A stretch of 32,000 nucleotides of DNA from Candidatus Heimdallarchaeota archaeon. GTDB lineage: Archaea; Asgardarchaeota; Heimdallarchaeia; Heimdallarchaeales; Heimdallarchaeaceae. Made by a program: the position numbers and the translations under genes. Numbering within the stretch: the stretch's first letter is position 1; the number at the start of each line of letters is the position of its first letter. Shown here one piece after another: positions 1 to 15,273 of the stretch. Below the pieces are notes generated by a model that saw only the letters and a program-made list of their open reading frames with translations, had not been told where the DNA came from and made no database searches. The stretch covers positions 1 to 32,000 of the forward strand of contig DAOVER010000021.1 of NCBI GenBank assembly GCA_030668875.1, given 5' to 3'.

Positions 1-1026
1 TCTAGAACCTGGAAGAGCTTTTTCCGAGCTAAACAAGAGTGGAAAAATGATCCTACCTTGTTTTTTGCCATGCCTAGGCCACCTAGCTACAAAAAAAAGG
101 ACGGGGAAGTAGTGGCCATCTTTACCAGTCAGCAGGCGAAGATAGTCAATGGATGGATAGTGTTACCGAAGAAAGTGAAGTACACCTACAAGACACGGTT
201 GACAGCTCAAGCAGAGCTAAGAGAAGTGCGAATCCTCCCTCAAAGAACTCACTATACCCTTGAACTTGTCTATCTGAAGAGTATACCCAATCTCAGGAAA
301 AAGTTGATCAGAAAAGGAGCGATAGATTTAGGGATGGACAACCTTGTCGCTTTCGTGGATAACCTCGGAGGAAGACCGATTGTTATCAAAGACGCAGGGA
401 AAGGGATAAAATCCATAACACAGTATTATTTGAAAGAACAGAAAAAATTACAACTACAGTATAGTCAGCAACAGAGAAAGCAAGTGCAAAAGAAGAAAAG
501 ACTCAAGTATGGTCCAGCTTACTACAAACTCAAAGAAAAGTGGCGAAGGAAGCTAAACGATGCCATCCACAAATTAACCAAGTATCTGGTAGACTTGTGG
601 GTAGACAGAGGGCTCCATGAAGTGGTGATAGGTTACAATGAACTATGGAAACAAGGGGTACATTTCTGGAAAAAAACCACCCAGATGTTCGTCACCATCC
701 CCTTCCTGAAAATCATTGATATACTGAAGTACAAAGGAGCTGAAAAGGGAATCAAAGTGGAAACTATCCCCGAACAATACACTTCTAAGAGCAGTTTCTT
801 GGATAATGAGTTCCCCAAAGAACGGAAAAAGTACAAAGGGAAAAGAATCTACCGAGGGTTGTTCCGTTCTGCTGCAGGTCATTTGATCAATGCTGACGTT
901 AATGCTGCTTACAATATTTTACTCAAAAGCGATCCGAAAGCCTTGCCTAAACGCACGGTGAACTGGGTAGGAGGATACGTGATGTATCCACAGAGAGTGA
1001 GTATAGAGTACCTTCGTTCTACATGA
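1..1026 (+). CDS. tnpB: TnpB RNA-guided endonuclease (IS200/IS605/IS607 superfamily), 5'-truncated by the window edge, rearranged RuvC-II type
   Basis: The frame is open from base 1 (SRTWKSFFRAKQEWKNDPTLFFAMPRPPSYKKKDG). RuvC-I is AIDLG; the canonical RuvC-II position reads VVIGYN..WKQ; an alternative Glu sits in PEQYTSK; RuvC-III is NADVNAAYNI. The CxxC zinc-finger Cys are absent. Confidence 0.92.
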   Translation, partial: SRTWKSFFRAKQEWKNDPTLFFAMPRPPSYKKKDGEVVAIFTSQQAKIVNGWIVLPKKVKYTYKTRLTAQAELREVRILPQRTHYTLELVYLKSIPNLRKKLIRKGAIDLGMDNLVAFVDNLGGRPIVIKDAGKGIKSITQYYLKEQKKLQLQYSQQQRKQVQKKKRLKYGPAYYKLKEKWRRKLNDAIHKLTKYLVDLWVDRGLHEVVIGYNELWKQGVHFWKKTTQMFVTIPFLKIIDILKYKGAEKGIKVETIPEQYTSKSSFLDNEFPKERKKYKGKRIYRGLFRSAAGHLINADVNAAYNILLKSDPKALPKRTVNWVGGYVMYPQRVSIEYLRST

Positions 1027-3556: not shown

Positions 3557-5035
3557 ATGGCTTCTCAAACCAACATTCAGGCAATACCTTTGGTAGAAAA
3601 GTACCGACCAGGGGTTTTTGAAGATTTTATTGGAAACTCAACCCTAGTTCAGGAAATTGAAGACTGGTTAATCACATGGAACAACCAAAAAAAGAAGGTT
3701 GTTCTGATTGCGGGTCCTGCTGGCGTAGGTAAAACGAGTGTTGTATATTATTTAATCAACAAGTACAATTACGAGTTTGTAGAAGTCAATGCGAGTGATA
3801 AGAGAAACAAAGCTGCTGTAGAACGACTAATTGGTCTATCTTCTACTGAAGGAACTGTGCTTCAAGGTGCCAGGGTTCGGAAATTAATTTTAGTGGATGA
3901 GGCAGATGGGCTTTTTGGAAACGAAGATCGTGGTGGAGGACCAGCACTAGCAAAAGCTATAGAAAAAGCTAAAATTCCAATAATTTGCACAGCAAATGAT
4001 CCTTCAGCAAAATCTTTGAAAGCTGCAAAAAGAAAAATGAAAGTTATAATGTTTAAAAGTCTCACAGAGCAAGAAATATTGACATTACTACAAAAGATTG
4101 TAGAAAAAGAGAATCTTGACATAGGTGAAAAAATACTAGTTGCGATTACAAAAAACTCTGGTGGAGATGCGCGATCTGCGATAAATGATTTAGAAGGTGC
4201 TGTTTTTGGTACAAAGGATTTAGAGGTGATTTTTTCACCAAGAAATCAGAAACACAGTCTGGATGCAGCTTTAACAAATATCTTCTCTGCTAAAGATTAT
4301 GGAGAAGCAAAACGTGCTCTTGATGGGGTTGATGTAGATTATAGAGAACTGTTAATCTATGTTTATGAACATGCTTGGAAGCAAGCAGCAAATCCTATTG
4401 AACTTTTCAACATTTATGAGTTAATTGCTGAAGCTGATATATACTTGCAACAGTGCTATATCAAACAAAATTGGATTTTCTTGAAGTATTTCTTTATACT
4501 GATATCTTCCGTTAATCTTGTAAAACAATCGCCTTTCAAATATACGAAATTTAGTTTTCCAAGTTATTGGGCTTTAATGGGAAGATTAAGAGGAAAGACT
4601 GCAAAAATGAAGCAACTAGCAATTAAGAGTACAAAAGCACTTCACTGCTCTACAAGAGTATTCATTAAGGATATTTATCCCTATCTGAAGATTATTTTTA
4701 ATACAGACGCTACTATGGCTGCAGGGATTGCTGTTTGGTTACAATACATTGAAGAAGATGTAGACTTCCTAACTAATGGCACTTCAAAAATGACAAGACA
4801 AATTATGACGCTTTTTGAAGAAGCATACATACAGATTACTGAATCTAGATTAGAACAAGCGAAAGATATTGAAATAGATTTGATGTTTTTTGCTAACATG
4901 GATAGATCGAAAAAGAAGAAATCTACAAAGACTGTTCAAGAAGACGTTCGAGAAGATGTTCAAGAAGATAATCGAACAAAAGGCACTAAAAAGAAAGCCT
5001 CACAAACTTCACTAGATACTTTTTTGGAAAAATAG
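3557..5035 (+). CDS. rfcL: Replication factor C large subunit (clamp loader)
   Basis: N-terminal LVEKYRP, Walker A GPAGVGKT, NASD, DEAD Walker B, GGDARSAINDL, and a C-terminal PIP-box-like QTSLDTF. Confidence 0.95.
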   Translation: MASQTNIQAIPLVEKYRPGVFEDFIGNSTLVQEIEDWLITWNNQKKKVVLIAGPAGVGKTSVVYYLINKYNYEFVEVNASDKRNKAAVERLIGLSSTEGTVLQGARVRKLILVDEADGLFGNEDRGGGPALAKAIEKAKIPIICTANDPSAKSLKAAKRKMKVIMFKSLTEQEILTLLQKIVEKENLDIGEKILVAITKNSGGDARSAINDLEGAVFGTKDLEVIFSPRNQKHSLDAALTNIFSAKDYGEAKRALDGVDVDYRELLIYVYEHAWKQAANPIELFNIYELIAEADIYLQQCYIKQNWIFLKYFFILISSVNLVKQSPFKYTKFSFPSYWALMGRLRGKTAKMKQLAIKSTKALHCSTRVFIKDIYPYLKIIFNTDATMAAGIAVWLQYIEEDVDFLTNGTSKMTRQIMTLFEEAYIQITESRLEQAKDIEIDLMFFANMDRSKKKKSTKTVQEDVREDVQEDNRTKGTKKKASQTSLDTFLEK

Positions 5036-6097: not shown

Positions 6098-8341
6098 ATG
6101 TCCTTTATTGAAAGATTAGAATTAACACAGGAAGAAAAACAAATTTATCAACTTCTTCTGGGATGTGGGCAGTTAACCTCTTTTGAAGCTGCTCAATTTA
6201 GTAACTTACATCTATCGAAGGTAAGTGTTGCTCTAGATGCCCTGATAAGTAAAGGTGCTATCGGAGTTTCTGAAGGATACATTAACAAATATTATGTTAA
6301 AATCCCATTAGAATACTTAGCTGAAACCAGTGAGAAATTGAGTTCTGATATTAAGACAAATCTTAATGAAACAACTAATTTTATACAAAGTAAGAAAGAA
6401 AGTTTCAATCAGTTAAGAGAAAATCTTACTAGACAGTTAGAAGAGGACGCAGATCAAAAGAAAACGACAATTGATAGTTCACTTACTGAAACCCATTCAT
6501 CTTTAAATGCATCAAATCAGCAGAAGAAACAAGCACTAGCAGAAAAATCTACAGCTTTAATCTCTAGATTAAATGCGTTAGGAGAAGAAAAGAAAGTAGA
6601 GATTAATACAATTATTAATGAATACTTTAGTGAGAATGTGAATAACCTAAATCAAGCTAAAACTACACTGAATACTGTAGTAGGAAATATAAAACAACAA
6701 ACTGAAGAATCTGTCTCAGCCTCAAACAATCAAATAACTCAACTTTCACAAGATTCTATTAATACGATCCAATCTGTTTCCGAGTTATTACAACCAAAGC
6801 TTGACGAATTACATCAGAAATACTTGTCTGAAGTTAACGAATTGATACTGTTAATAGAACAAAGAATTGAAGTTTCCAAATTGGATGTTAGAGCTTTCAA
6901 TAGAACACAATCAGAAAAATATCTCGGATATTCTTCGGAAATAACTAGAAATGCTGAAAAGAATATAGATTCTGTTTCTGAAGCTGTTTCAACAAATCTT
7001 CAAGATTTGGGTGTATCATTAGACTTGATACTCAACCAAAAAGTAGAGGAACTTTCATTAAATGTTCAAGAAACTGTTAACTCACTTAATGAGAAAATTG
7101 AAAACATTAAAGCTACTCTTGTAAGTGAACTACAACAACAAAAGAACACAACTATTTCTGCAACAGTTTCACAGATTAAAGAGAGCATGACTCTAAAATA
7201 CACTGATCTTCAGAACAATGAACAAAACCAGAGAAACAATCTAGTGAGTGAGAGAGATATGTTTATGCAAAAGTTGGAAGGTCATTATAACGAGACAATT
7301 CAAAATTATAATGAAAAATTCAGTGAAGTTAAGATAGGAGCAACTGAAAGATTTACTTCATTCAACGAAGAATTTTCAGAAAAGTTCAATGAGATTTCGA
7401 CTAATGTTGTTGCGAATTTGAATAGTAACATTCAATCTTTTCGTACACTATCTGAACAACTCAACTCAGTTTTTTCAGACTCATATGTTGCTGGTTCTAA
7501 CCAATTAAAAGAAAAATGGTCAGATTTGGTTAGCAAAGCAGAAACATTGGTTCAAGAAAGTGAAACAGCTATTACACAGCACTTTCAAGAAGTTTCAAAC
7601 TTGGTTCAAACAACCACTTCTTCATTTACAGAAGAGTTAAACAGCTTTTTACAGCAATCACTAGATTCAGCTGTAGGCACTGTCGGTAAAATGGCAAATG
7701 CATCCAAAGCAAATATAGACGAAGGCAAGCAATTGCTTGCGGGTAGTCTTAATTCAGAAGTAGAGGATTCAGTTAAATTTATCGGAGATAATAACAATAA
7801 GATGTCAGACACAGCAAACTACCTTCTGGGTATGACTTTGAAACTGAAGAACGATTTCAGGACTCTTGAAGCTACTTCAAAAGAAACTACCATTCCCCCT
7901 GTTCAAACAACATCTATTGTTGGTCTAGAAGCTGTTAAAGAGAACATTGCTCGAATTGTTAAGGACACTAAACGAGGCGTTACAATCTTGTCTCCACTCA
8001 AGGAATACATCCCCTTAGATGCAATTAAATTGCTACCAACAACAGCTAAGGCTACTCTTGTAACAAAACTGGATGAGATTGCAGATGGTGATTGGATTTC
8101 TTCAGCGATGGAATCTCAAGCTAATGTTGAAATAAGAAGGTTCAGAGATACTGGAACGGGTGTTGAACTGCCAAGATTCATTGGTGTTGAGAGAGAAAAT
8201 GAAGAAGTTCTTATTGCAGCACAAGATGAAGCTACAGGAGAAGTTGTGGGAATCTTGAGTAGGTCTACTTATTTTGCAAAACTTGTTTCATACATAGTTA
8301 TTGCTGACTTTGCAAGAGGAAGATCATCTCAAATAAAATAA
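6098..8341 (+). CDS. TrmB-family wHTH protein with a ~500-aa helical repeat insert and a C-terminal TrmB effector/PLD-like domain
   Basis: N-terminal LTQEEKQIYQLLL..GQLT..EAAQ.S.L..SKV..ALD.L.SKG resembles a TrmB HTH. The centre is helical with 22-residue periodicity. The C-terminal TTSIVGLEAVKENIARIVKDTKRGVTILSP resembles the TrmB middle domain. Confidence 0.7.
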   Translation: MSFIERLELTQEEKQIYQLLLGCGQLTSFEAAQFSNLHLSKVSVALDALISKGAIGVSEGYINKYYVKIPLEYLAETSEKLSSDIKTNLNETTNFIQSKKESFNQLRENLTRQLEEDADQKKTTIDSSLTETHSSLNASNQQKKQALAEKSTALISRLNALGEEKKVEINTIINEYFSENVNNLNQAKTTLNTVVGNIKQQTEESVSASNNQITQLSQDSINTIQSVSELLQPKLDELHQKYLSEVNELILLIEQRIEVSKLDVRAFNRTQSEKYLGYSSEITRNAEKNIDSVSEAVSTNLQDLGVSLDLILNQKVEELSLNVQETVNSLNEKIENIKATLVSELQQQKNTTISATVSQIKESMTLKYTDLQNNEQNQRNNLVSERDMFMQKLEGHYNETIQNYNEKFSEVKIGATERFTSFNEEFSEKFNEISTNVVANLNSNIQSFRTLSEQLNSVFSDSYVAGSNQLKEKWSDLVSKAETLVQESETAITQHFQEVSNLVQTTTSSFTEELNSFLQQSLDSAVGTVGKMANASKANIDEGKQLLAGSLNSEVEDSVKFIGDNNNKMSDTANYLLGMTLKLKNDFRTLEATSKETTIPPVQTTSIVGLEAVKENIARIVKDTKRGVTILSPLKEYIPLDAIKLLPTTAKATLVTKLDEIADGDWISSAMESQANVEIRRFRDTGTGVELPRFIGVERENEEVLIAAQDEATGEVVGILSRSTYFAKLVSYIVIADFARGRSSQIK

Positions 8342-8480
8342 ATGAAACCTCTCTCTTTTTTCTTTCTTTTTTCCTAAATTTGAACAAATTGTGATAGAAA
8401 TGAGAATCGCATAGAGATTGAGAAGACTTTAAAAAGGTGCTCAAAAAATGGGATTCAAAAATATTAGGTGTAAAAGAAAA

Positions 8481-8654
8481 ATGCCAACCGTAGTAGACGC
8501 TGAATGTTGTATAGCTTGTGGAGCTTGTGTAGATATTTGTCCCGAAAATGTTTATGATCTAAAGGATGTTGCAGTTACGACAAGAAAAGAAGATTGTACA
8601 GATTGTGGTTTGTGTATAGACGAATGTCCAAATGAATGTATAGATTTTGAGTAG
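8481..8654 (+). CDS. 2x[4Fe-4S] dicluster ferredoxin
   Basis: Two CxxCxxCxxxCP motifs (CIACGACVDICP; CTDCGLCIDECP). ATG at 8481 lies downstream of AGGTG. Confidence 0.93.
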   Translation: MPTVVDAECCIACGACVDICPENVYDLKDVAVTTRKEDCTDCGLCIDECPNECIDFE

Positions 8655-8763: not shown

Positions 8764-11748
8764 ATGGAATCTCTTACTTGTGTTTATTTGAAGACTTTAT
8801 CCCAAATTGGGGGCGATAATCCTCGGGTTACCATTTTAGTAGATTCAGAGAATAGAAATTTTATAGTTAATCTATGGTCTCCTTGGCATGTTATAGGAGA
8901 ATATATTCAACCATATACATTACTTAAACTGTTCAATGTTGAAAAGATACAAGAAAAAGATTCTGTCTACTTCTCAGCAGGATCAAATTCTATAGTTGTT
9001 GTAGACCCAGATGTATTGATTAACGCAACAGCTGTGAACAACGTTTCTTTTTGCCCAAGAAGTTATTATCTCAATGAAATTGTTGGTGAGACTGCATCCC
9101 CCTATATCGCAATTCGTGGTTCAATCATTCACGATAGTTTTGGTTCTGCAATAGCAAGCGGAACTAAACCTTCAGAGCAGCTATCTTCTGTTATTGATTC
9201 TTTTTCACTACAGTTTGAAAAGTTCGGTTACACTAGAGAAGATGTAAATAAGGAATTGCGAGAGATGGCAGAGAGTCTAGATTCTTTTGTCGAAAAGTTG
9301 AAAGGTGATTCTCTTCCTGAAATCTTGTTTCTTTCGCCCACTTTTGGTATTCGAGGGAGAATCGATCTCTTCAATTCAGGACACATTTATGAGCTTAAAA
9401 CTGGAAAGGTTCATGCAGATGACAATATCCGATTTTCTGATTTACTTCAAGTTACACTCTATAAATATGGTCTTGATGAACATTTGGATTTATCAAAACC
9501 AAGTGATGGTACTGTGATTTATGTTGGAACTAACAAGGCTATTCTTAAGACGGCGCAACCTTCTTGGAACCTTCTTAGATATGCAATAGAACAGAGAAAC
9601 ATTGCTTACCGAATTTCATACTTGGGATATCACCCTCCCATTTTACCAGAAGATCAAATGAATAGGTGCAAAAAGTGTTCAGTAAAACATTTTTGTGCCA
9701 TGGTTTGTGCAGGTTTAAAACAAGAAAGAAGATGCTCAACCTGTCCTCATGATTTATTATGTACGCACAATGCTATGCCCGATACGTTCCAAGACTACTT
9801 CAAGCGTTTCACAAATTGGATACGTGAAGAAAGGAATGAATCTTCTCAGAATTTTGCAAATTTATGGAAATTAGATATAAACCAGAGAATTGCCAAGGGC
9901 AAAACAATAGAAGGTTTGAAACTTGAAAGCGAAATAAAGGAAAACGGAAACACTAAATTAATTTTTTCATGTAATAATATGTCAGAACTGAGAGAAGGAG
10001 ATATTGTCGTTTTAAGTCAAGGGAGCATACACAAAAGTAGTGTAATTACGGGAGCTGTTTCTAGTATCTCTAAAAACTCACTTGAAATATCGACAAGGGC
10101 TGTTGCTGGATCTATCTCTGTTGTAGACCTCTATTCATTAGATGTAGGTTTTAGAAGACAGCAAAGGGGATTATTCAACCTAGTCTTTAAGAGAAACAAT
10201 TTCAGACAGGCTATTCTTGATTCTAACCCTCCGATTATAAAATCAATTAAGGGTGATTTTGTTAAAAATAATTCCGTACAAAACGAAGGAATTGAAAGAA
10301 TATTGGGGACTAAAAACTTCTCCTTAATTCAAGGACCTGCAGGAACGGGTAAAACCTATGTCATTGCAAAATCAGCCATAATACTAGCAAAAAGCGGTGA
10401 AAAAGTTCTTCTTACTGCATTTACTAATCGGGCAGTAGACAACATATGTTCTTATCTGATATCAAACAACTTTACCAATTTCATACGATTAGGACGTAAA
10501 TATTCCACACAAGATAAAATTAAGGAATATACACTTGAAGCATATAAAGATAAAAATCCAGATAAATCGTTTTCTCAACTGTTGAATGAGATCCCTATTA
10601 TCGTCGCAACAACGTCGACAATATCTAGCCCAAATTTCGAGAAATTGGGGATTCAAACAATCATAATTGATGAAGCAAGTCAGATGACAGAACCAACTGT
10701 ATTATCAGCCTTAATGGAAGGGGATAGATTTATTCTTGTAGGGGATCATAAACAATTGCCTCCAGTTGTACAGAGTCAAACAGCTCAGACAGAAGGGTTG
10801 AGTGTTTCATTATTTGAGAGATTGGCAAAACTCTATCCAGAATCTATTCATCTATTAACTCATCAATTTCGTATGAATGAGAAACTTGTAGACTTCTCCA
10901 ATGAAAAATTCTATGAAGGGAAACTGAAATCATTTGATAACTTAGTAAAATTACAAAATCTTTTAGACTTAAGCAATTTTAAGGGAGATTACTCTCAATT
11001 AGACCATCCGGAAATTTATGACCCTAAAACCCCCTTAGTTTATGTTCCTGTACGAGGCATGTTCAACCATGATAAGAAAATTAACAAAAAAGAAGTTGAA
11101 TCAATTGCAATAATAGTGAAAAATTTCTTGAAACTCGGTTTGAATACAAATCAAATGGGGATAATTGGTCCTTATAGGGGGCAGGTCGGAGAAATAAGAA
11201 GATATCTGCCATCAAATCTTACAACTGATACAGTTGATCGGTTTCAAGGAAGTGATAGGGAATTAATTGTTCTGTCCTTAACCGAATCTCAGTCGAGTGG
11301 GAGTAGAGGATTTGGAGATGAAAGAAGATTAAATGTAGCCATAACAAGAGCAAAGAAGAAACTTGTTGTTGTAGGTGATCCACTAATCAACAAAGGAATT
11401 CTGAATGATTATATAGCATATCTGAAAACTAATGCCTCTGTTGCTGTTACCAAAGAACAGGAAAGCAGAGAAACACTAACAATTAGTGAAGAAAGCGTAG
11501 TGGTTGCTGATAATCTTTCCAAAACAGCACGTTTCTTCAAAAAGATTCAGAGTAAAGGAAAACAGCTTATTGAAAGTCAAGAGTCCAAGTACAAATGCAT
11601 GGTCTGTTTTCAACAGGTTTACGAAAATGCTCTAGAATGTCCATTTTGCGAACATATTTTTCATTATGACCATCTTGTAACATGGATAAGTAAAAAGGGT
11701 AGATGCCCATATTGTAAAACAAAACTAAGTATATTTAAAACTGCTTGA
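8764..11748 (+). CDS. Dna2-like nuclease-helicase (Fe-S PD-(D/E)XK nuclease + SF1B helicase) with C-terminal RING-H2-like finger
   Basis: DPDVLINAT..FCPR, GSIIHD, GRIDL, YELKTG, LQVTLY, CxxCx5C; helicase motifs QGPAGTGKT, DEASQ, GDHKQLPP, QFRMN, TVDRFQG, RRLNVAITRAK; RING at aa 945-984. Confidence 0.88.
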   Translation: MESLTCVYLKTLSQIGGDNPRVTILVDSENRNFIVNLWSPWHVIGEYIQPYTLLKLFNVEKIQEKDSVYFSAGSNSIVVVDPDVLINATAVNNVSFCPRSYYLNEIVGETASPYIAIRGSIIHDSFGSAIASGTKPSEQLSSVIDSFSLQFEKFGYTREDVNKELREMAESLDSFVEKLKGDSLPEILFLSPTFGIRGRIDLFNSGHIYELKTGKVHADDNIRFSDLLQVTLYKYGLDEHLDLSKPSDGTVIYVGTNKAILKTAQPSWNLLRYAIEQRNIAYRISYLGYHPPILPEDQMNRCKKCSVKHFCAMVCAGLKQERRCSTCPHDLLCTHNAMPDTFQDYFKRFTNWIREERNESSQNFANLWKLDINQRIAKGKTIEGLKLESEIKENGNTKLIFSCNNMSELREGDIVVLSQGSIHKSSVITGAVSSISKNSLEISTRAVAGSISVVDLYSLDVGFRRQQRGLFNLVFKRNNFRQAILDSNPPIIKSIKGDFVKNNSVQNEGIERILGTKNFSLIQGPAGTGKTYVIAKSAIILAKSGEKVLLTAFTNRAVDNICSYLISNNFTNFIRLGRKYSTQDKIKEYTLEAYKDKNPDKSFSQLLNEIPIIVATTSTISSPNFEKLGIQTIIIDEASQMTEPTVLSALMEGDRFILVGDHKQLPPVVQSQTAQTEGLSVSLFERLAKLYPESIHLLTHQFRMNEKLVDFSNEKFYEGKLKSFDNLVKLQNLLDLSNFKGDYSQLDHPEIYDPKTPLVYVPVRGMFNHDKKINKKEVESIAIIVKNFLKLGLNTNQMGIIGPYRGQVGEIRRYLPSNLTTDTVDRFQGSDRELIVLSLTESQSSGSRGFGDERRLNVAITRAKKKLVVVGDPLINKGILNDYIAYLKTNASVAVTKEQESRETLTISEESVVVADNLSKTARFFKKIQSKGKQLIESQESKYKCMVCFQQVYENALECPFCEHIFHYDHLVTWISKKGRCPYCKTKLSIFKTA

Positions 11749-11789: not shown

Positions 11790-13580
11790 TTATTTCTTGT
11801 ATTTTTTAAATCCGGCAATTGCTGCTAGTCCTAAGAATGATAGGAATACTAAACCTGCAATACCTACTGGGGTTGTAACCTCTACTTCGACAGTATATCC
11901 TGCTGCTTCTACGTAATCAATTGCTAAATCAATATCGTAGGCGTAATATCCTAGAGAATCATCGAAGTCCACTGCGGCATCAGGACATGGAGGACCCCCA
12001 GGAGCACCTAATCCTTCAAGAATTTCTGAAACGATTGTTTCACGTGGAACAGCGTGACTTATTGCTTTACGAATACTCAAAGCTGCGGCAGCTGTACCAA
12101 GAGGTGTAAGTTCACCTGTACCAAAAATAGGATTTTTCATGTTGATTGCCATTTCTTGATGTGATGGATCTTTAATTAAGACACCTTCTACACCAGTAAC
12201 GTCTACAAAATCTGCTAAAACTGGATAGTATTGAGCATCCATAATGTCAATGGTACCAGCAATCAATTCAGCTACTGCACTGTCTTTACCAGCTATGAAA
12301 GTTAAATACCAATCAGTTAATTTAACAGGTTCTCCGTGCCAATATGGGTTGGGTACCATTCTAACAACACTTAGATCTGGGTCAAAATCATCTAGCATGA
12401 AAGGACCACAAGAACGAACAAGTGTGTCTTGAACGTTACCAGTTAACGGTTCTTCATTAAAGATACCATAACCATGTGTTGAAATTGCTAGTTCAACAAG
12501 GCTCTTATCAATGATAGAAGAAGCAAGTAAACCTGTTGCGAAGTTATATACTCCTGTTAATTGGAATAATAACTCACCACCTGCTATATCTGGACCGACA
12601 ACAGAGATAGAATCGTTTGTAGCAAACCATTTTTTCAAGAAACTGTAGCTTGTTGAACCTACTGCAGGTGTCATGAATAATTCATATGAATACACGACAT
12701 CTGATGGTAATACATCACTTCCATCGCTGAACTTTGCATCAGGATCTAAGAACACTGTCATATTGATTTTGCTGTCAATTATTTCTGAAATTGTGAAATT
12801 CAGAGCAATTTCTGGTTCCCATTCGTGAGTATCTTGTGCTCTCTTTACTAGATTTCCATAAACAGTTTGCATCCATTGTGTATCATAGAATGATTCTACA
12901 ACATATGTATTTGGTTCTTTCAAGTCTGCAGGAATTGCATATGTAATGCTATGATCATCTGAATCATCCCAATACTCTGCTCTATGACCTGAGCTTGCTA
13001 TTAACAGTCCATCAATCCCAGATACTGTTTCACTGAAACCAAAAAGAGATCTTGGATAGATCAGTACAATAGTAGGCAAGTCTGCATATAATATTCCTTG
13101 TATATCGTGAGCTGCTGCTGTCCTTGTAGTTGGATCTAATGCAGTTAGATAATCATCTAATCTTGCATCATATGCTGCGTTGCTGTATTGATAGAAGTTG
13201 TCACCGTTTGGTATCATGCTTTCTGTGTCCCACAAACCGGTTGGGTCCCAATCAAGTCCCCATGACCAACCAACAAAGAATATGTCGAAACCACCCTTTG
13301 CATAGGTTGGAATGTAATCATAATCAATTAATGGATATGCCCATGTACGGGGACCAATATTTCCCCATCCTGTAGATTCATGGAAGGATACACCAATACC
13401 AATTTTTGGTAATTGTTGTTCCATTAGCAGTGACCATTGATTACGGGCTGCGCTTGTATTGGGTGAAAGTAAGTTTATTGAAAAAGCGATTTGTATTTCT
13501 GTTTCTTGTGCTTGTGCAAGGTATGTGCTCATACTGAACAAGACAATTAGGGTTAAACCCAATAATGCTTTATTTTTCAT
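11790..13580 (-). CDS. ABC transporter substrate-binding protein, family 5 (peptide/nickel), with signal peptide and C-terminal membrane anchor
   Basis: N-terminal MKNKALLGLTLIVLFS signal; GPFML, NPYWHG, IRKAISHAVPRETIV, YDIDLA..Y motifs; C-terminal hydrophobic helix plus KKYKK. GGTGA precedes the ATG at 13580. Confidence 0.88.
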   Translation of the reverse strand: MKNKALLGLTLIVLFSMSTYLAQAQETEIQIAFSINLLSPNTSAARNQWSLLMEQQLPKIGIGVSFHESTGWGNIGPRTWAYPLIDYDYIPTYAKGGFDIFFVGWSWGLDWDPTGLWDTESMIPNGDNFYQYSNAAYDARLDDYLTALDPTTRTAAAHDIQGILYADLPTIVLIYPRSLFGFSETVSGIDGLLIASSGHRAEYWDDSDDHSITYAIPADLKEPNTYVVESFYDTQWMQTVYGNLVKRAQDTHEWEPEIALNFTISEIIDSKINMTVFLDPDAKFSDGSDVLPSDVVYSYELFMTPAVGSTSYSFLKKWFATNDSISVVGPDIAGGELLFQLTGVYNFATGLLASSIIDKSLVELAISTHGYGIFNEEPLTGNVQDTLVRSCGPFMLDDFDPDLSVVRMVPNPYWHGEPVKLTDWYLTFIAGKDSAVAELIAGTIDIMDAQYYPVLADFVDVTGVEGVLIKDPSHQEMAINMKNPIFGTGELTPLGTAAAALSIRKAISHAVPRETIVSEILEGLGAPGGPPCPDAAVDFDDSLGYYAYDIDLAIDYVEAAGYTVEVEVTTPVGIAGLVFLSFLGLAAIAGFKKYKK

Positions 13581-13733
13581 ATTTTTTTCACCTATAAATT
13601 TTCCACTCAAAAGTATATTTTACAGTGGAAGCATTTCCAAAGTGTTAATACAGCTTAATAAAGGTTTTGCGTTTCCATTTCAATAGTTGGAATCAAATTT
13701 ATCTTATAAGAAAAATATAAACGACACAATCAT

Positions 13734-13769: not shown

Positions 13770-14249
13770 CTAAGAGGCTCCAAAGTGCTCAATAAGTTTC
13801 AAAATCTGTACCATCACCATAAGATAAACTAGGAGCAAAACCGCAGCAATATAATAAGTAAAGGAACTGAATGTTGCCTCTCGGAAACTATCTTTACTCA
13901 TCGGTGCAGATTTGAAAAGCCTAGATTTCAAATTAGTAATGGTAACTGATTGACCGAAATTACCTACACAAGCTCCAAGAAGGACTACAAAACCAACCTC
14001 ACCAAAGAATACATATTGCATAATATCTTGTAATGCTAAATCGGGAAAAAACCCTATACCATAAATAACAATTATTGAGATTATGATATTAATAACTACA
14101 AAAATAATTGAAGTAATAAATCCTAAAAATGTGATGCGAGGCCAATTTACTTTTGTTCTTTCTTCTTCTCCCTCAGCTTTTTTTTCATCGTTATTTGCAT
14201 TAGTGATCTTTTTTCTTGTTTTTCCCACTTTCTTACTTGATGGCCCCAT
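13770..14249 (-). CDS. Hypothetical membrane protein (about 3 TM), coupled to the ABC ATPase
   Basis: Hydrophobic helices follow a charged N-terminus; the gene overlaps the ATPase gene by 17 nt. Confidence 0.7.
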   Translation of the reverse strand: MGPSSKKVGKTRKKITNANNDEKKAEGEEERTKVNWPRITFLGFITSIIFVVINIIISIIVIYGIGFFPDLALQDIMQYVFFGEVGFVVLLGACVGNFGQSVTITNLKSRLFKSAPMSKDSFREATFSSFTYYIAAVLLLVYLMVMVQILKLIEHFGAS

Positions 14250-15273
14250 TATTGTCCCCTTTATCAGTTATTGGTGCTCCGCAATATGAACAGAACCTTG
14301 TTCCGTTCTTAACTTGATTCCCACACATTGTACATGTTATTACTCTTTTCATATTGTTAGGCACGAAATCAGCTTGATATATAGGATGCAGTATTATTTT
14401 ACCATTTTCCATTTCTATTGAAAAATGTTTAGGGCTATCCATGTCTAGTAAAACAGTTTTGGGGAGAACAATACGATTTTGTCGATCAATTTCTAACAGT
14501 CTGCTATCTTCCAATTTTCTGAGACTTATTTTACTTCCATGCTGACCAATTATTACACCATCTCTCAGTTCGAGAATTCTATCAGCTCTAGCAGCAACTT
14601 GTTGTGAATGCGTTACAATGCAGATAGCAATTCCGAGTTCTTCATTGATTCTATCAAATAAGTCTAAAATACTCTCTGTAGTTTCTACATCTAAATCGCC
14701 TGTAGGTTCATCTCCTATCAGTATTTTGGGGTTGGTTATAAGAGTTGTAGCTATAGCAGCTCTCTTCTTTTCTCCTCCAGAAAGCGTGTCTTCTCTTTTC
14801 ATTCTTTTATCCCAAATTCCAAGAAATTTTAGTAGAAATTCAGTTCTTTGTTTCACAACCTTTGGTTGTACTTTTGCATAATATCCAGCTAACTCTATAT
14901 TTTCTTTTACTGTTAGATGAGATAATAGTTTACTATCTTGAAAAATAACTCCCGCAAATGTTCTTCTTGCCTTTATTATTTCTTCATAAGTAGACCTTGT
15001 AATGTCTTTTGAAAGTTCTTTCCAAAATACTTTACCCGAGGTGGTTTTAGTAATTCCTGCTACTACATTTACTAGCGTAGTTTTTCCAGATCCGCTTGGT
15101 CCAATTAGAAATAACTTTTCTTGAGGTTTTACTTTGAAAGAAACACCTCTTAATGCTTGTGTTTCTATTTTCCCAGTTCGGTAAATTTTGATTATATCTT
15201 CAGCAACTAATAATGGATCAGCATCGTTGATTGCTTCGGTTCCATGCGACGGGGAACTAATCTTAGTTACCAT
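14233..15273 (-). CDS. LolD/MacB-type ABC ATPase with C-terminal AbrB-like domain and zinc ribbon
   Basis: GPSGSGKTT, LSGGE, GDEPTGDLD, VTH. The C-terminal EIDRQNRIVLPK..SIEMENGKIILHP is AbrB/SpoVT-like, followed by CTMCG..CSYCG. Confidence 0.88.
   Translation of the reverse strand: MVTKISSPSHGTEAINDADPLLVAEDIIKIYRTGKIETQALRGVSFKVKPQEKLFLIGPSGSGKTTLVNVVAGITKTTSGKVFWKELSKDITRSTYEEIIKARRTFAGVIFQDSKLLSHLTVKENIELAGYYAKVQPKVVKQRTEFLLKFLGIWDKRMKREDTLSGGEKKRAAIATTLITNPKILIGDEPTGDLDVETTESILDLFDRINEELGIAICIVTHSQQVAARADRILELRDGVIIGQHGSKISLRKLEDSRLLEIDRQNRIVLPKTVLLDMDSPKHFSIEMENGKIILHPIYQADFVPNNMKRVITCTMCGNQVKNGTRFCSYCGAPITDKGDNNGAIK

Follow-up and report, generated by a model that had tools for sequence, protein, structure and literature searches.

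The window analysed here, the whole of a 32,000-nucleotide (nt) stretch of DNA from a Candidatus Heimdallarchaeota archaeon (GenBank assembly GCA_030668875.1, contig DAOVER010000021.1, positions 1 to 32,000 of the forward strand), carries in a single plus-strand open reading frame a gene for a Dna2-family nuclease-helicase that ends in a RING-type finger, referred to below as Dna2-RING. According to the open reading frame list and its translation, the frame runs from 8764 to 11748 and encodes 994 amino acids (aa) plus a stop codon. The gene is a chromosomal Dna2 of a Heimdallarchaeaceae archaeon, with the features below (pLDDT, predicted local distance difference test, is the confidence score of the AlphaFold2 models).

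8764..11748, plus strand: the whole Dna2-RING gene, with which homologues of equal length align from residue 1 to approximately residue 992.
8764..9003, plus strand: N-terminal beta domain, resembling an oligonucleotide/oligosaccharide-binding (OB) fold, aa 1-80, modelled by AlphaFold2 with six strands at a pLDDT of ~90 and lying within the alignment to the Dna2 structure 5EAN.
9016..9768, plus strand: PD-(D/E)XK nuclease with a 4Fe-4S staple, aa ~85-335, matched by the Pfam models Dna2 and PDDEXK_1.
9706..9762, plus strand: second Cys4 motif, C315-x8-C324-x2-C327-x5-C333 (aa 315-333), directly after the Fe-S staple.
9781..10203, plus strand: helical stalk and beta-barrel between nuclease and helicase, aa ~340-480, from the AlphaFold2 secondary structure and aligned with mouse Dna2.
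10246..11448, plus strand: superfamily 1B (SF1B, Upf1-like) helicase, aa ~495-895, from the AAA_11, AAA_12 and mouse DNA2 matches.
11455..11586, plus strand: flexible linker, aa 898-941 (~45 residues), with a pLDDT below 50 in the full-length AlphaFold2 model.
11596..11715, plus strand: RING-type finger, aa 945-984, from the zf-RING_2 match, profile matches, AlphaFold2 model and fold matches.

The 994-aa protein is almost certainly a Dna2-family enzyme, and the full Dna2 architecture proposed by an earlier reading of the sequence alone (the sequence-only reading), with its N-terminal beta domain, Fe-S nuclease and SF1B helicase, was recovered by family models, invariant residues and overall fold alike. 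The Pfam Dna2 model (PF08696) matched at 61.5 bits (cut-off 22.4), together with PDDEXK_1 and with AAA_11 and AAA_12 (1e-35 and 2e-42), and the best match among solved sequences was mouse DNA2 (2e-58), well ahead of IGHMBP2, UPF1 and SEN1. An alignment of 16 homologues, with identities down to 25%, was used to assess the core and was also the basis of the full-length AlphaFold2 model (mean pLDDT 83). Invariant in this alignment were the nuclease residues D201, E210, K212, Q229 and Y233 (D...E-x-K and Q-x3-Y motifs), the cysteines of the predicted 4Fe-4S cluster (C97, C302, C305 and C311; C...C-x2-C-x5-C) and all helicase motifs I-VI, including Walker A (GPAGTGKT, 524-531), motif II (DEASQ, 636-640) and motif VI (around R855-R862); the same nuclease and cluster residues are carried by 26 eukaryotic Dna2 representatives. 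In a Foldseek search with the full-length model, the top three matches were the Dna2 structures 5EAN, 5EAX and 5EAW, followed by helicase-only proteins, with mouse Dna2 (5EAN) matching at an E value of 1e-54 and a TM-score of 0.70 over 1031 alignment columns. By homology, the protein would thus be expected to have both nuclease and helicase activities. The second Cys4 motif, found in 14 of the 16 RING-clade Dna2 sequences, 0 of the 26 eukaryotic ones and 3 of 41 other Dna2-like proteins, lies in a region modelled at a pLDDT of 55-65 and could be an Fe-S cluster or a zinc site.

The tail reads, as the sequence-only reading had spelled it for nt 11596-11715, C945-x2-C948-x10-C959-P-F-C962-E-H964-x2-H967-x2-H970-x3-W974-x6-C981-P-Y-C984, and both profile and model comparisons suggest that this finger very probably adopts a genuine RING fold. 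The match to Pfam zf-RING_2 is marginal (30.0 bits for the tail alone, 31 in the genome scan and 24.4 within the whole 994-aa protein, at a cut-off of 27.3), the runners-up for the tail were other RING models, and no PHD model was among the families listed. A profile built from 48 homologous tails, some only 22% identical, was compared with all PDB sequences and retrieved Arkadia (2e-11), gp78/AMFR (1.5e-10) and Hrd1 (2e-10), then RNF165, RNF126, RLIM and RNF38; PHD fingers appeared in the same search at only ~2e-3 (PHF21A and WSTF). A finger-only AlphaFold2 model (pLDDT 89) has a beta-beta-alpha layout (a beta-hairpin, then a helix), and its top 50 Foldseek and top 50 VIA-align matches were all RING or U-box domains, among them RNF165 (root mean square deviation (rmsd) 1.6 Å over 51 residues), TRAF6, RING1B, gp78, Hrd1 and several U-boxes. 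Across these matches rmsd values were 1.2-2.5 Å and Z-scores reached at most 7.4, which is modest for so small a domain, and the argument draws its force from how uniform the list is, taken along with the sequence profile.

The ligand set of the finger departs from the RING-H2 type to which it had first been likened. Across the 48 tails, from which all residue counts for the finger were taken, seven residues (C945, C948, C959, C962, H967, C981 and C984) never vary and an eighth, H970, is shared by 47, and these eight would ligate zinc in a cross-brace arrangement, as modelled. C959 is kept in all 48 sequences, H964 (the would-be fourth ligand of a RING-H2 finger) in 16, and the sixth ligand is His in 47, not Cys; the finger is therefore assigned to a C4H2C2 variant of the RING and not to canonical RING-H2. 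The family pattern is C-x2-C-x(8-11)-C-x2-C-x4-H-x2-H-x(6-10)-C-x2-C, and the family departs from the canonical spacing, C3-x-H4-x(2)-H5-x2-C6. The initial description thus held for the RING type, which profile and fold matches favour over PHD, but not for the RING-H2 ligand set. The spacing of ligands 3-6 is PHD-like; the remainder is RING-H2-like ([F/Y]-H5, H6-L-x2-W-[LIV] and C-P-x-C-K), and the ligand order is C4H2C2, as opposed to the C4HC3 of PHD fingers, which were absent from the fold matches listed; by the rule of the search tool, such an absence does not count against the family.

Four residues of the finger, V947, W974, P982 and K985, occupy E2-contact-like positions, and the family largely keeps them: Ile, Leu or Val two residues after the first ligand (47 of 48), Trp four residues after the sixth (45 of 48), Pro after the seventh (38 of 48), and a basic 'linchpin' residue, Lys or Arg, after the eighth (37 of 48), with the Trp aligning with that of Arkadia in the HMMER alignment. 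The positions equivalent to these four contact the E2, or prime the E2~ubiquitin conjugate, in solved RING-E2 complexes. In one Kariarchaeaceae-like Dna2 (L050, from genome G010), all eight ligands are retained, but ligands 6 and 7 are separated by a shortened stretch of 6 residues, which no longer contains the Trp. The linker that joins finger and helicase varies in sequence from subclade to subclade, and a regular-expression search over it for a PCNA-interacting peptide (PIP) box (Qxx[ILMV]xx[FYW][FYWL]) revealed none that was conserved.

We assessed how widely the fusion occurs with searches of increasing reach. A word-indexed search with the tail returned nine proteins of ~990-1000 aa or fragments thereof, all fused alike, two of them named Heimdallarchaeaceae and Heimdallarchaeota; an exhaustive phmmer search added representatives with 25-36% identity in which the terminal finger persists, some named Kariarchaeaceae and Heimdallarchaeota. 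Scanning one genome per species yielded 49 archaeal loci, nearly all matching to residue ~990, with the labels Heimdallarchaeota, Hodarchaeota, Heimdallarchaeum endolithica and H. aukensis (both closed genomes) and, in two cases, Thorarchaeota. Among 399 genomes of the phylum, combined nuclease and helicase matches were confined to four families of the window's class (f1, 29 of 29 genomes; f2, 1 of 1; f4, 10 of 12; f5, 11 of 22), and genomes outside these families matched in the helicase core only. Dna2-RING is usually present in one copy per genome and occurs in 29 of 29 genomes of its own family; the fusion is thus conserved across the class, in four families of Heimdallarchaeia only.

In a maximum likelihood tree of 83 nuclease-plus-helicase proteins, from which the finger was left out, the 16 RING-bearing sequences formed one clade (SH-aLRT, an approximate likelihood ratio test of branch support, 96), whose nearest non-RING neighbours were a Bathyarchaeota protein and one other sequence (P0016 and P0019). 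The eukaryotic clade (26 members, anchored by Vanderwaltozyma Dna2) was well supported and separate from the RING clade, with the deep order a polytomy. A C-terminal RING was found in 0 of the 26 eukaryotic Dna2 representatives, in agreement with the starting premise that eukaryotic Dna2 has none, and in none of the bacterial representatives. From these distributions, the gene appears to be a vertically inherited housekeeping gene. A 2025 study has related eukaryotic Dna2 to some Asgard homologues, with no RING mentioned (PMC12680538). In the literature searched (open-access papers and bioRxiv), we found neither a description of the Dna2-RING fusion nor a prokaryotic nuclease-helicase fused to an E3-type domain, and we regard Dna2-RING as real and conserved, an apparently undescribed form of a known enzyme.

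The genome in which the finger resides (assembly of 3.2 Mb, 92% complete) encodes further RINGs and the components of a ubiquitin system. Eleven zf-RING_2 matches were recovered in the genome scan, and most of the approximately ten other RING proteins (L010-L020) are likewise C4H2C2 and share H-x2-H-x3-W and C-P-x-C; in four, ligands 3-4 are two cysteines side by side, and L013 alone has the classical C-x-H-x2-H. Because the other RINGs of the genome are mostly of this type, the Dna2 finger appears to have been recruited from a RING family native to the lineage. One of the RING proteins is itself linked to DNA, a 537-aa protein (L012:1459-3072, minus strand, contig C36) with a weak TrmB-type winged helix-turn-helix match and a C-terminal C4H2C2 RING.

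E1, E2 and ubiquitin, the absence of which would have counted against a ubiquitin-related role, are all encoded: the scan returned four UQ_con matches, two ubiquitin genes and three ThiF-type E1-like genes, and ThiF proteins of 418 and 339 aa are candidate E1s. One gene cluster comprises an E2, a JAB protease, a RING protein (also C4H2C2), a ubiquitin-like protein and an E1, and another a UEV-Vps23-Vps28 fusion, an E1 and ubiquitin, an arrangement described for Heimdall genomes (Hatano et al. 2022, PMC9192718). Two E2s have an H-[PA]-N motif and a catalytic Cys and are predicted to be active, and one of 155 aa is closest to UbcH5b/UBE2D (5e-28), occurs in 79 of the 82 genomes of the class and shows 92-100% identity among members of the genus. 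A further UQ_con-like protein (218 aa; L003:1168-1824, minus strand, contig C64) is UEV-like, without a catalytic Cys, and carries a coiled coil fused at its C-terminus. A RING-E2 complex prediction from the alignments of the 155-aa E2 and the RING scored 0.00, a run without controls that speaks neither for nor against binding. The Kariarchaeaceae genome with the shortened, Trp-less RING (G010, identical to G400; 85% complete) has weak, UEV-like UQ_con matches only. The idea that RING decay covaries with E2 loss was rejected, as another RING (L069) is also without the Trp, yet its genome has canonical E2s.

Dna2 and RING ligases are both familiar on their own, and several known systems bear comparison with Dna2-RING. 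Eukaryotic Dna2 (mouse 5EAN, 5EAW and 5EAX; yeast) has the same order of OB-like N-terminus, Fe-S nuclease, barrel and stalk, and SF1B helicase, but has neither a C-terminal RING nor the second Cys4 motif (0 of 26 in each case) and carries a long N-terminal extension that is absent from the archaeal protein. The RING-H2 E3s (Arkadia/RNF111, RNF165, gp78/AMFR, Hrd1, RNF38 and EL5) share with the finger the F/Y-H5 pair, the L-x2-W-L helix, C-P-x-C-[KR] and a hydrophobic residue before C2, whereas their C3-x-H4-x2-H5-x2-C6 arrangement is replaced in the finger by a C-x2-C knuckle at ligands 3-4 and a His at ligand 6, with the H4 position variable. Rad5/HLTF/SHPRH and Rad18, E3s of eukaryotic DNA-damage tolerance, join a RING to a DNA motor or to a module that binds DNA and ubiquitylate replisome proteins such as PCNA. 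The one-polypeptide design is alike, but the fusions are not homologous and the analogy is functional only: Rad5/HLTF/SHPRH have an SF2/SNF2 motor with the RING inserted in the ATPase and no nuclease, whereas Dna2-RING has an SF1B, Upf1-like motor with a nuclease and a C-terminal, tethered RING, which places it outside that group.

In Caldiarchaeum subterraneum, an E1/E2/small-RING cascade has been described in which the archaeal RING acts as an E3 (Hennell James et al. 2017, in the form in which it is cited in PMC9192718), and Heimdall genomes encode ubiquitin, E1, E2 and UEV-ESCRT-I (Hatano et al. 2022, PMC9192718). These Caldiarchaeum and Asgard systems have the same E1, E2 and ubiquitin parts as the genome studied here; unlike that of Dna2-RING, their RINGs are small and stand-alone or operon-encoded, and none forms part of an enzyme that processes DNA. 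Bacterial and other archaeal Dna2-like proteins (Geobacillus Bad, PMC7430649; Bathyarchaeota P0016 and P0184) have the same Fe-S nuclease-helicase core, without a RING tail.

The surroundings of the gene in the window comprise the following:

1-1026, plus strand: gene for an RNA-guided endonuclease of the TnpB family, truncated where the window starts (NF040570, 116 bits; cut-off 100).
3557-5035: large subunit of replication factor C (RFC-L; NF003229, 322.6 bits; cut-off 280).
6098-8341, plus strand: 747-aa protein that combines a TrmB-type winged helix at its N-terminus with a long coiled coil (apolipoprotein-like repeats) and keeps synteny with Dna2-RING in 22 loci.
8448..8654, plus strand: 68-aa 2x[4Fe-4S] ferredoxin (Pfam Fer4), 110 nt upstream of Dna2.
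11790-13610: family-5 solute-binding protein.
14233-15273, minus strand: ABC-transporter ATPase with a C-terminal zinc-ribbon domain, adjoining the solute-binding protein.

The block formed by the TrmB-coiled-coil protein, the ferredoxin and Dna2 is syntenic within Heimdallarchaeaceae only, and the ferredoxin is the upstream neighbour of Dna2-RING in 23 loci of that family and not in other families; any tie between the ferredoxin and the Fe-S nuclease is speculative. For the RFC-L gene, which had been pointed out upstream of Dna2, the identity was borne out, but not the significance of its position: it lies near Dna2-RING in few loci only, and its proximity is not conserved outside Heimdallarchaeaceae and therefore carries no functional weight, so a functional link between the two genes was rejected.

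Together, these results are consistent with a reading to which we assign a rough probability of 0.55, namely that Dna2-RING is a housekeeping Dna2 whose RING recruits a charged E2 and so couples flap and end processing to ubiquitin. By homology to eukaryotic Dna2, the core would act on 5' single-stranded flaps or ends, threading them through and cleaving them, in lagging-strand maturation, end resection or fork rescue, with the SF1B helicase working 5'-3'. A RING domain of the lineage's C4H2C2 type would have been acquired in Heimdallarchaeia, on a flexible tether of ~45 residues, and would recruit a ubiquitin-charged E2, for which the class-wide, UbcH5-like 155-aa E2 is the best candidate, to the DNA structure under processing. 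Ubiquitin could then be passed to Dna2 itself or to its neighbours on single-stranded DNA (ssDNA) or flaps (RPA, PCNA or other replisome parts), so that one polypeptide would tie the processing of DNA ends and flaps to signalling or turnover by ubiquitin. Whether the RING is an active E3 is close to an even bet, and the E2 binding, ligase activity and substrates named here are those that we infer for it.

Two alternatives would remove the gene from this context altogether, and both appear improbable. The remoter, that the gene is a defence-type nuclease-helicase and not a replication or repair enzyme, draws on matches to the PADLOC model MkoA (209 bits) and the NCBIfam models PLuB and ProA and on the TnpB gene at the window start, and we consider it very improbable: the MkoA and ProA matches extend no further than the generic helicase core; PLuB takes in part of the nuclease as well but reaches only 256 bits where the cut-off is 999; every genome of the family has the gene, usually in one copy and beside conserved housekeeping neighbours; and the overall fold matches Dna2 from end to end. 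Somewhat less improbable, though still to be given little credence, is that the finger reads DNA structures or a modified protein as a nucleic-acid-binding or PHD-like module with no link to ubiquitin. Its C-x2-C-x4-H-x2-[H/C] spacing at ligands 3-6 is that of a PHD finger, and the PHF21A and WSTF matches point weakly the same way; yet RING-H2 domains match eight orders of magnitude better, Pfam returns RING families with no PHD listed, the top 50 matches of both fold searches are RING or U-box throughout, and the H-L-x2-W-[LIV] helix motif and C-P-x-C-K are RING-H2 signatures. The possibility raised at the outset that the domain might fold as a PHD or other non-E3 finger is thus, very probably, answered in favour of a RING/U-box fold, with a profile closest to RING-H2 E3s.

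The main rival to the ubiquitin-coupled reading accepts the RING but denies it an E2: the finger would be a non-catalytic zinc module that dimerises Dna2, tethers a partner (RPA, PCNA, a polymerase or another RING protein) or offers a docking site for other ligases. What weighs against a catalytic finger is also what favours this scaffold. The ligand set is non-canonical, its C4H2C2 order and C3-x2-C4-x4-H5 spacing differing from those of RING-H2 enzymes of demonstrated activity; loss of Trp974 is tolerated in a few members of the family, and the helix is shortened in the Kariarchaeaceae form; there is no linkage in the genome between Dna2-RING and the genes for E1, E2 or ubiquitin, and in a closed relative an E2 lies ~70 kb from Dna2; and some eukaryotic RINGs, such as BARD1, BMI1, MDMX and p44 of TFIIH, are structural or partner-binding only and act as scaffolds. 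However, the finger retains the positions whose loss is usual in inactive RINGs (47, 45 and 37 of 48 for the hydrophobic residue, the Trp and the basic residue, respectively), the nearest relatives in sequence and fold are active monomeric or dimeric RING-H2 E3s, and C4H2C2 is common to about ten other RINGs of the genome, including the one in the operon with E1, E2, ubiquitin and JAB. We therefore regard a purely non-catalytic finger as rather unlikely, while taking it more seriously than either alternative above, and retain the housekeeping Dna2 with an E2-recruiting RING as the preferred reading.

A bolder version of that reading, which we advance only tentatively and would not quite back at even odds, holds that Dna2-RING is a bifunctional enzyme that, once it engages ssDNA flaps or resected ends, uses its RING as an active E3 with the UbcH5-like E2 to ubiquitylate itself or nearby replisome and repair proteins, and that ubiquitin control of replication and repair is pre-eukaryotic, having first been hard-wired in Dna2. 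Eukaryotes would later have divided the two roles, leaving one with Dna2 and giving the other to E3s of their own such as Rad18 and Rad5/HLTF. The fusion is conserved in Heimdallarchaeia, the archaeal class to which the nearest known relatives of eukaryotes belong, in genomes with full sets of E1, E2 and ubiquitin, and it could matter greatly for how ubiquitin signalling on DNA evolved in its early stages. Two features are of structural interest in themselves: the second Cys4 site, which is specific to the clade, and the C4H2C2 form of the RING. If the RING is inactive, it would still point to an interaction hub, peculiar to the lineage, on an enzyme central to replication. If it is active, Dna2-RING would provide a compact, expressible system (one enzyme, an E2, an E1 and ubiquitin) for studying how DNA-structure sensing gates an E3, and would be the first direct evidence of ubiquitin signalling wired to DNA replication and repair before eukaryogenesis.

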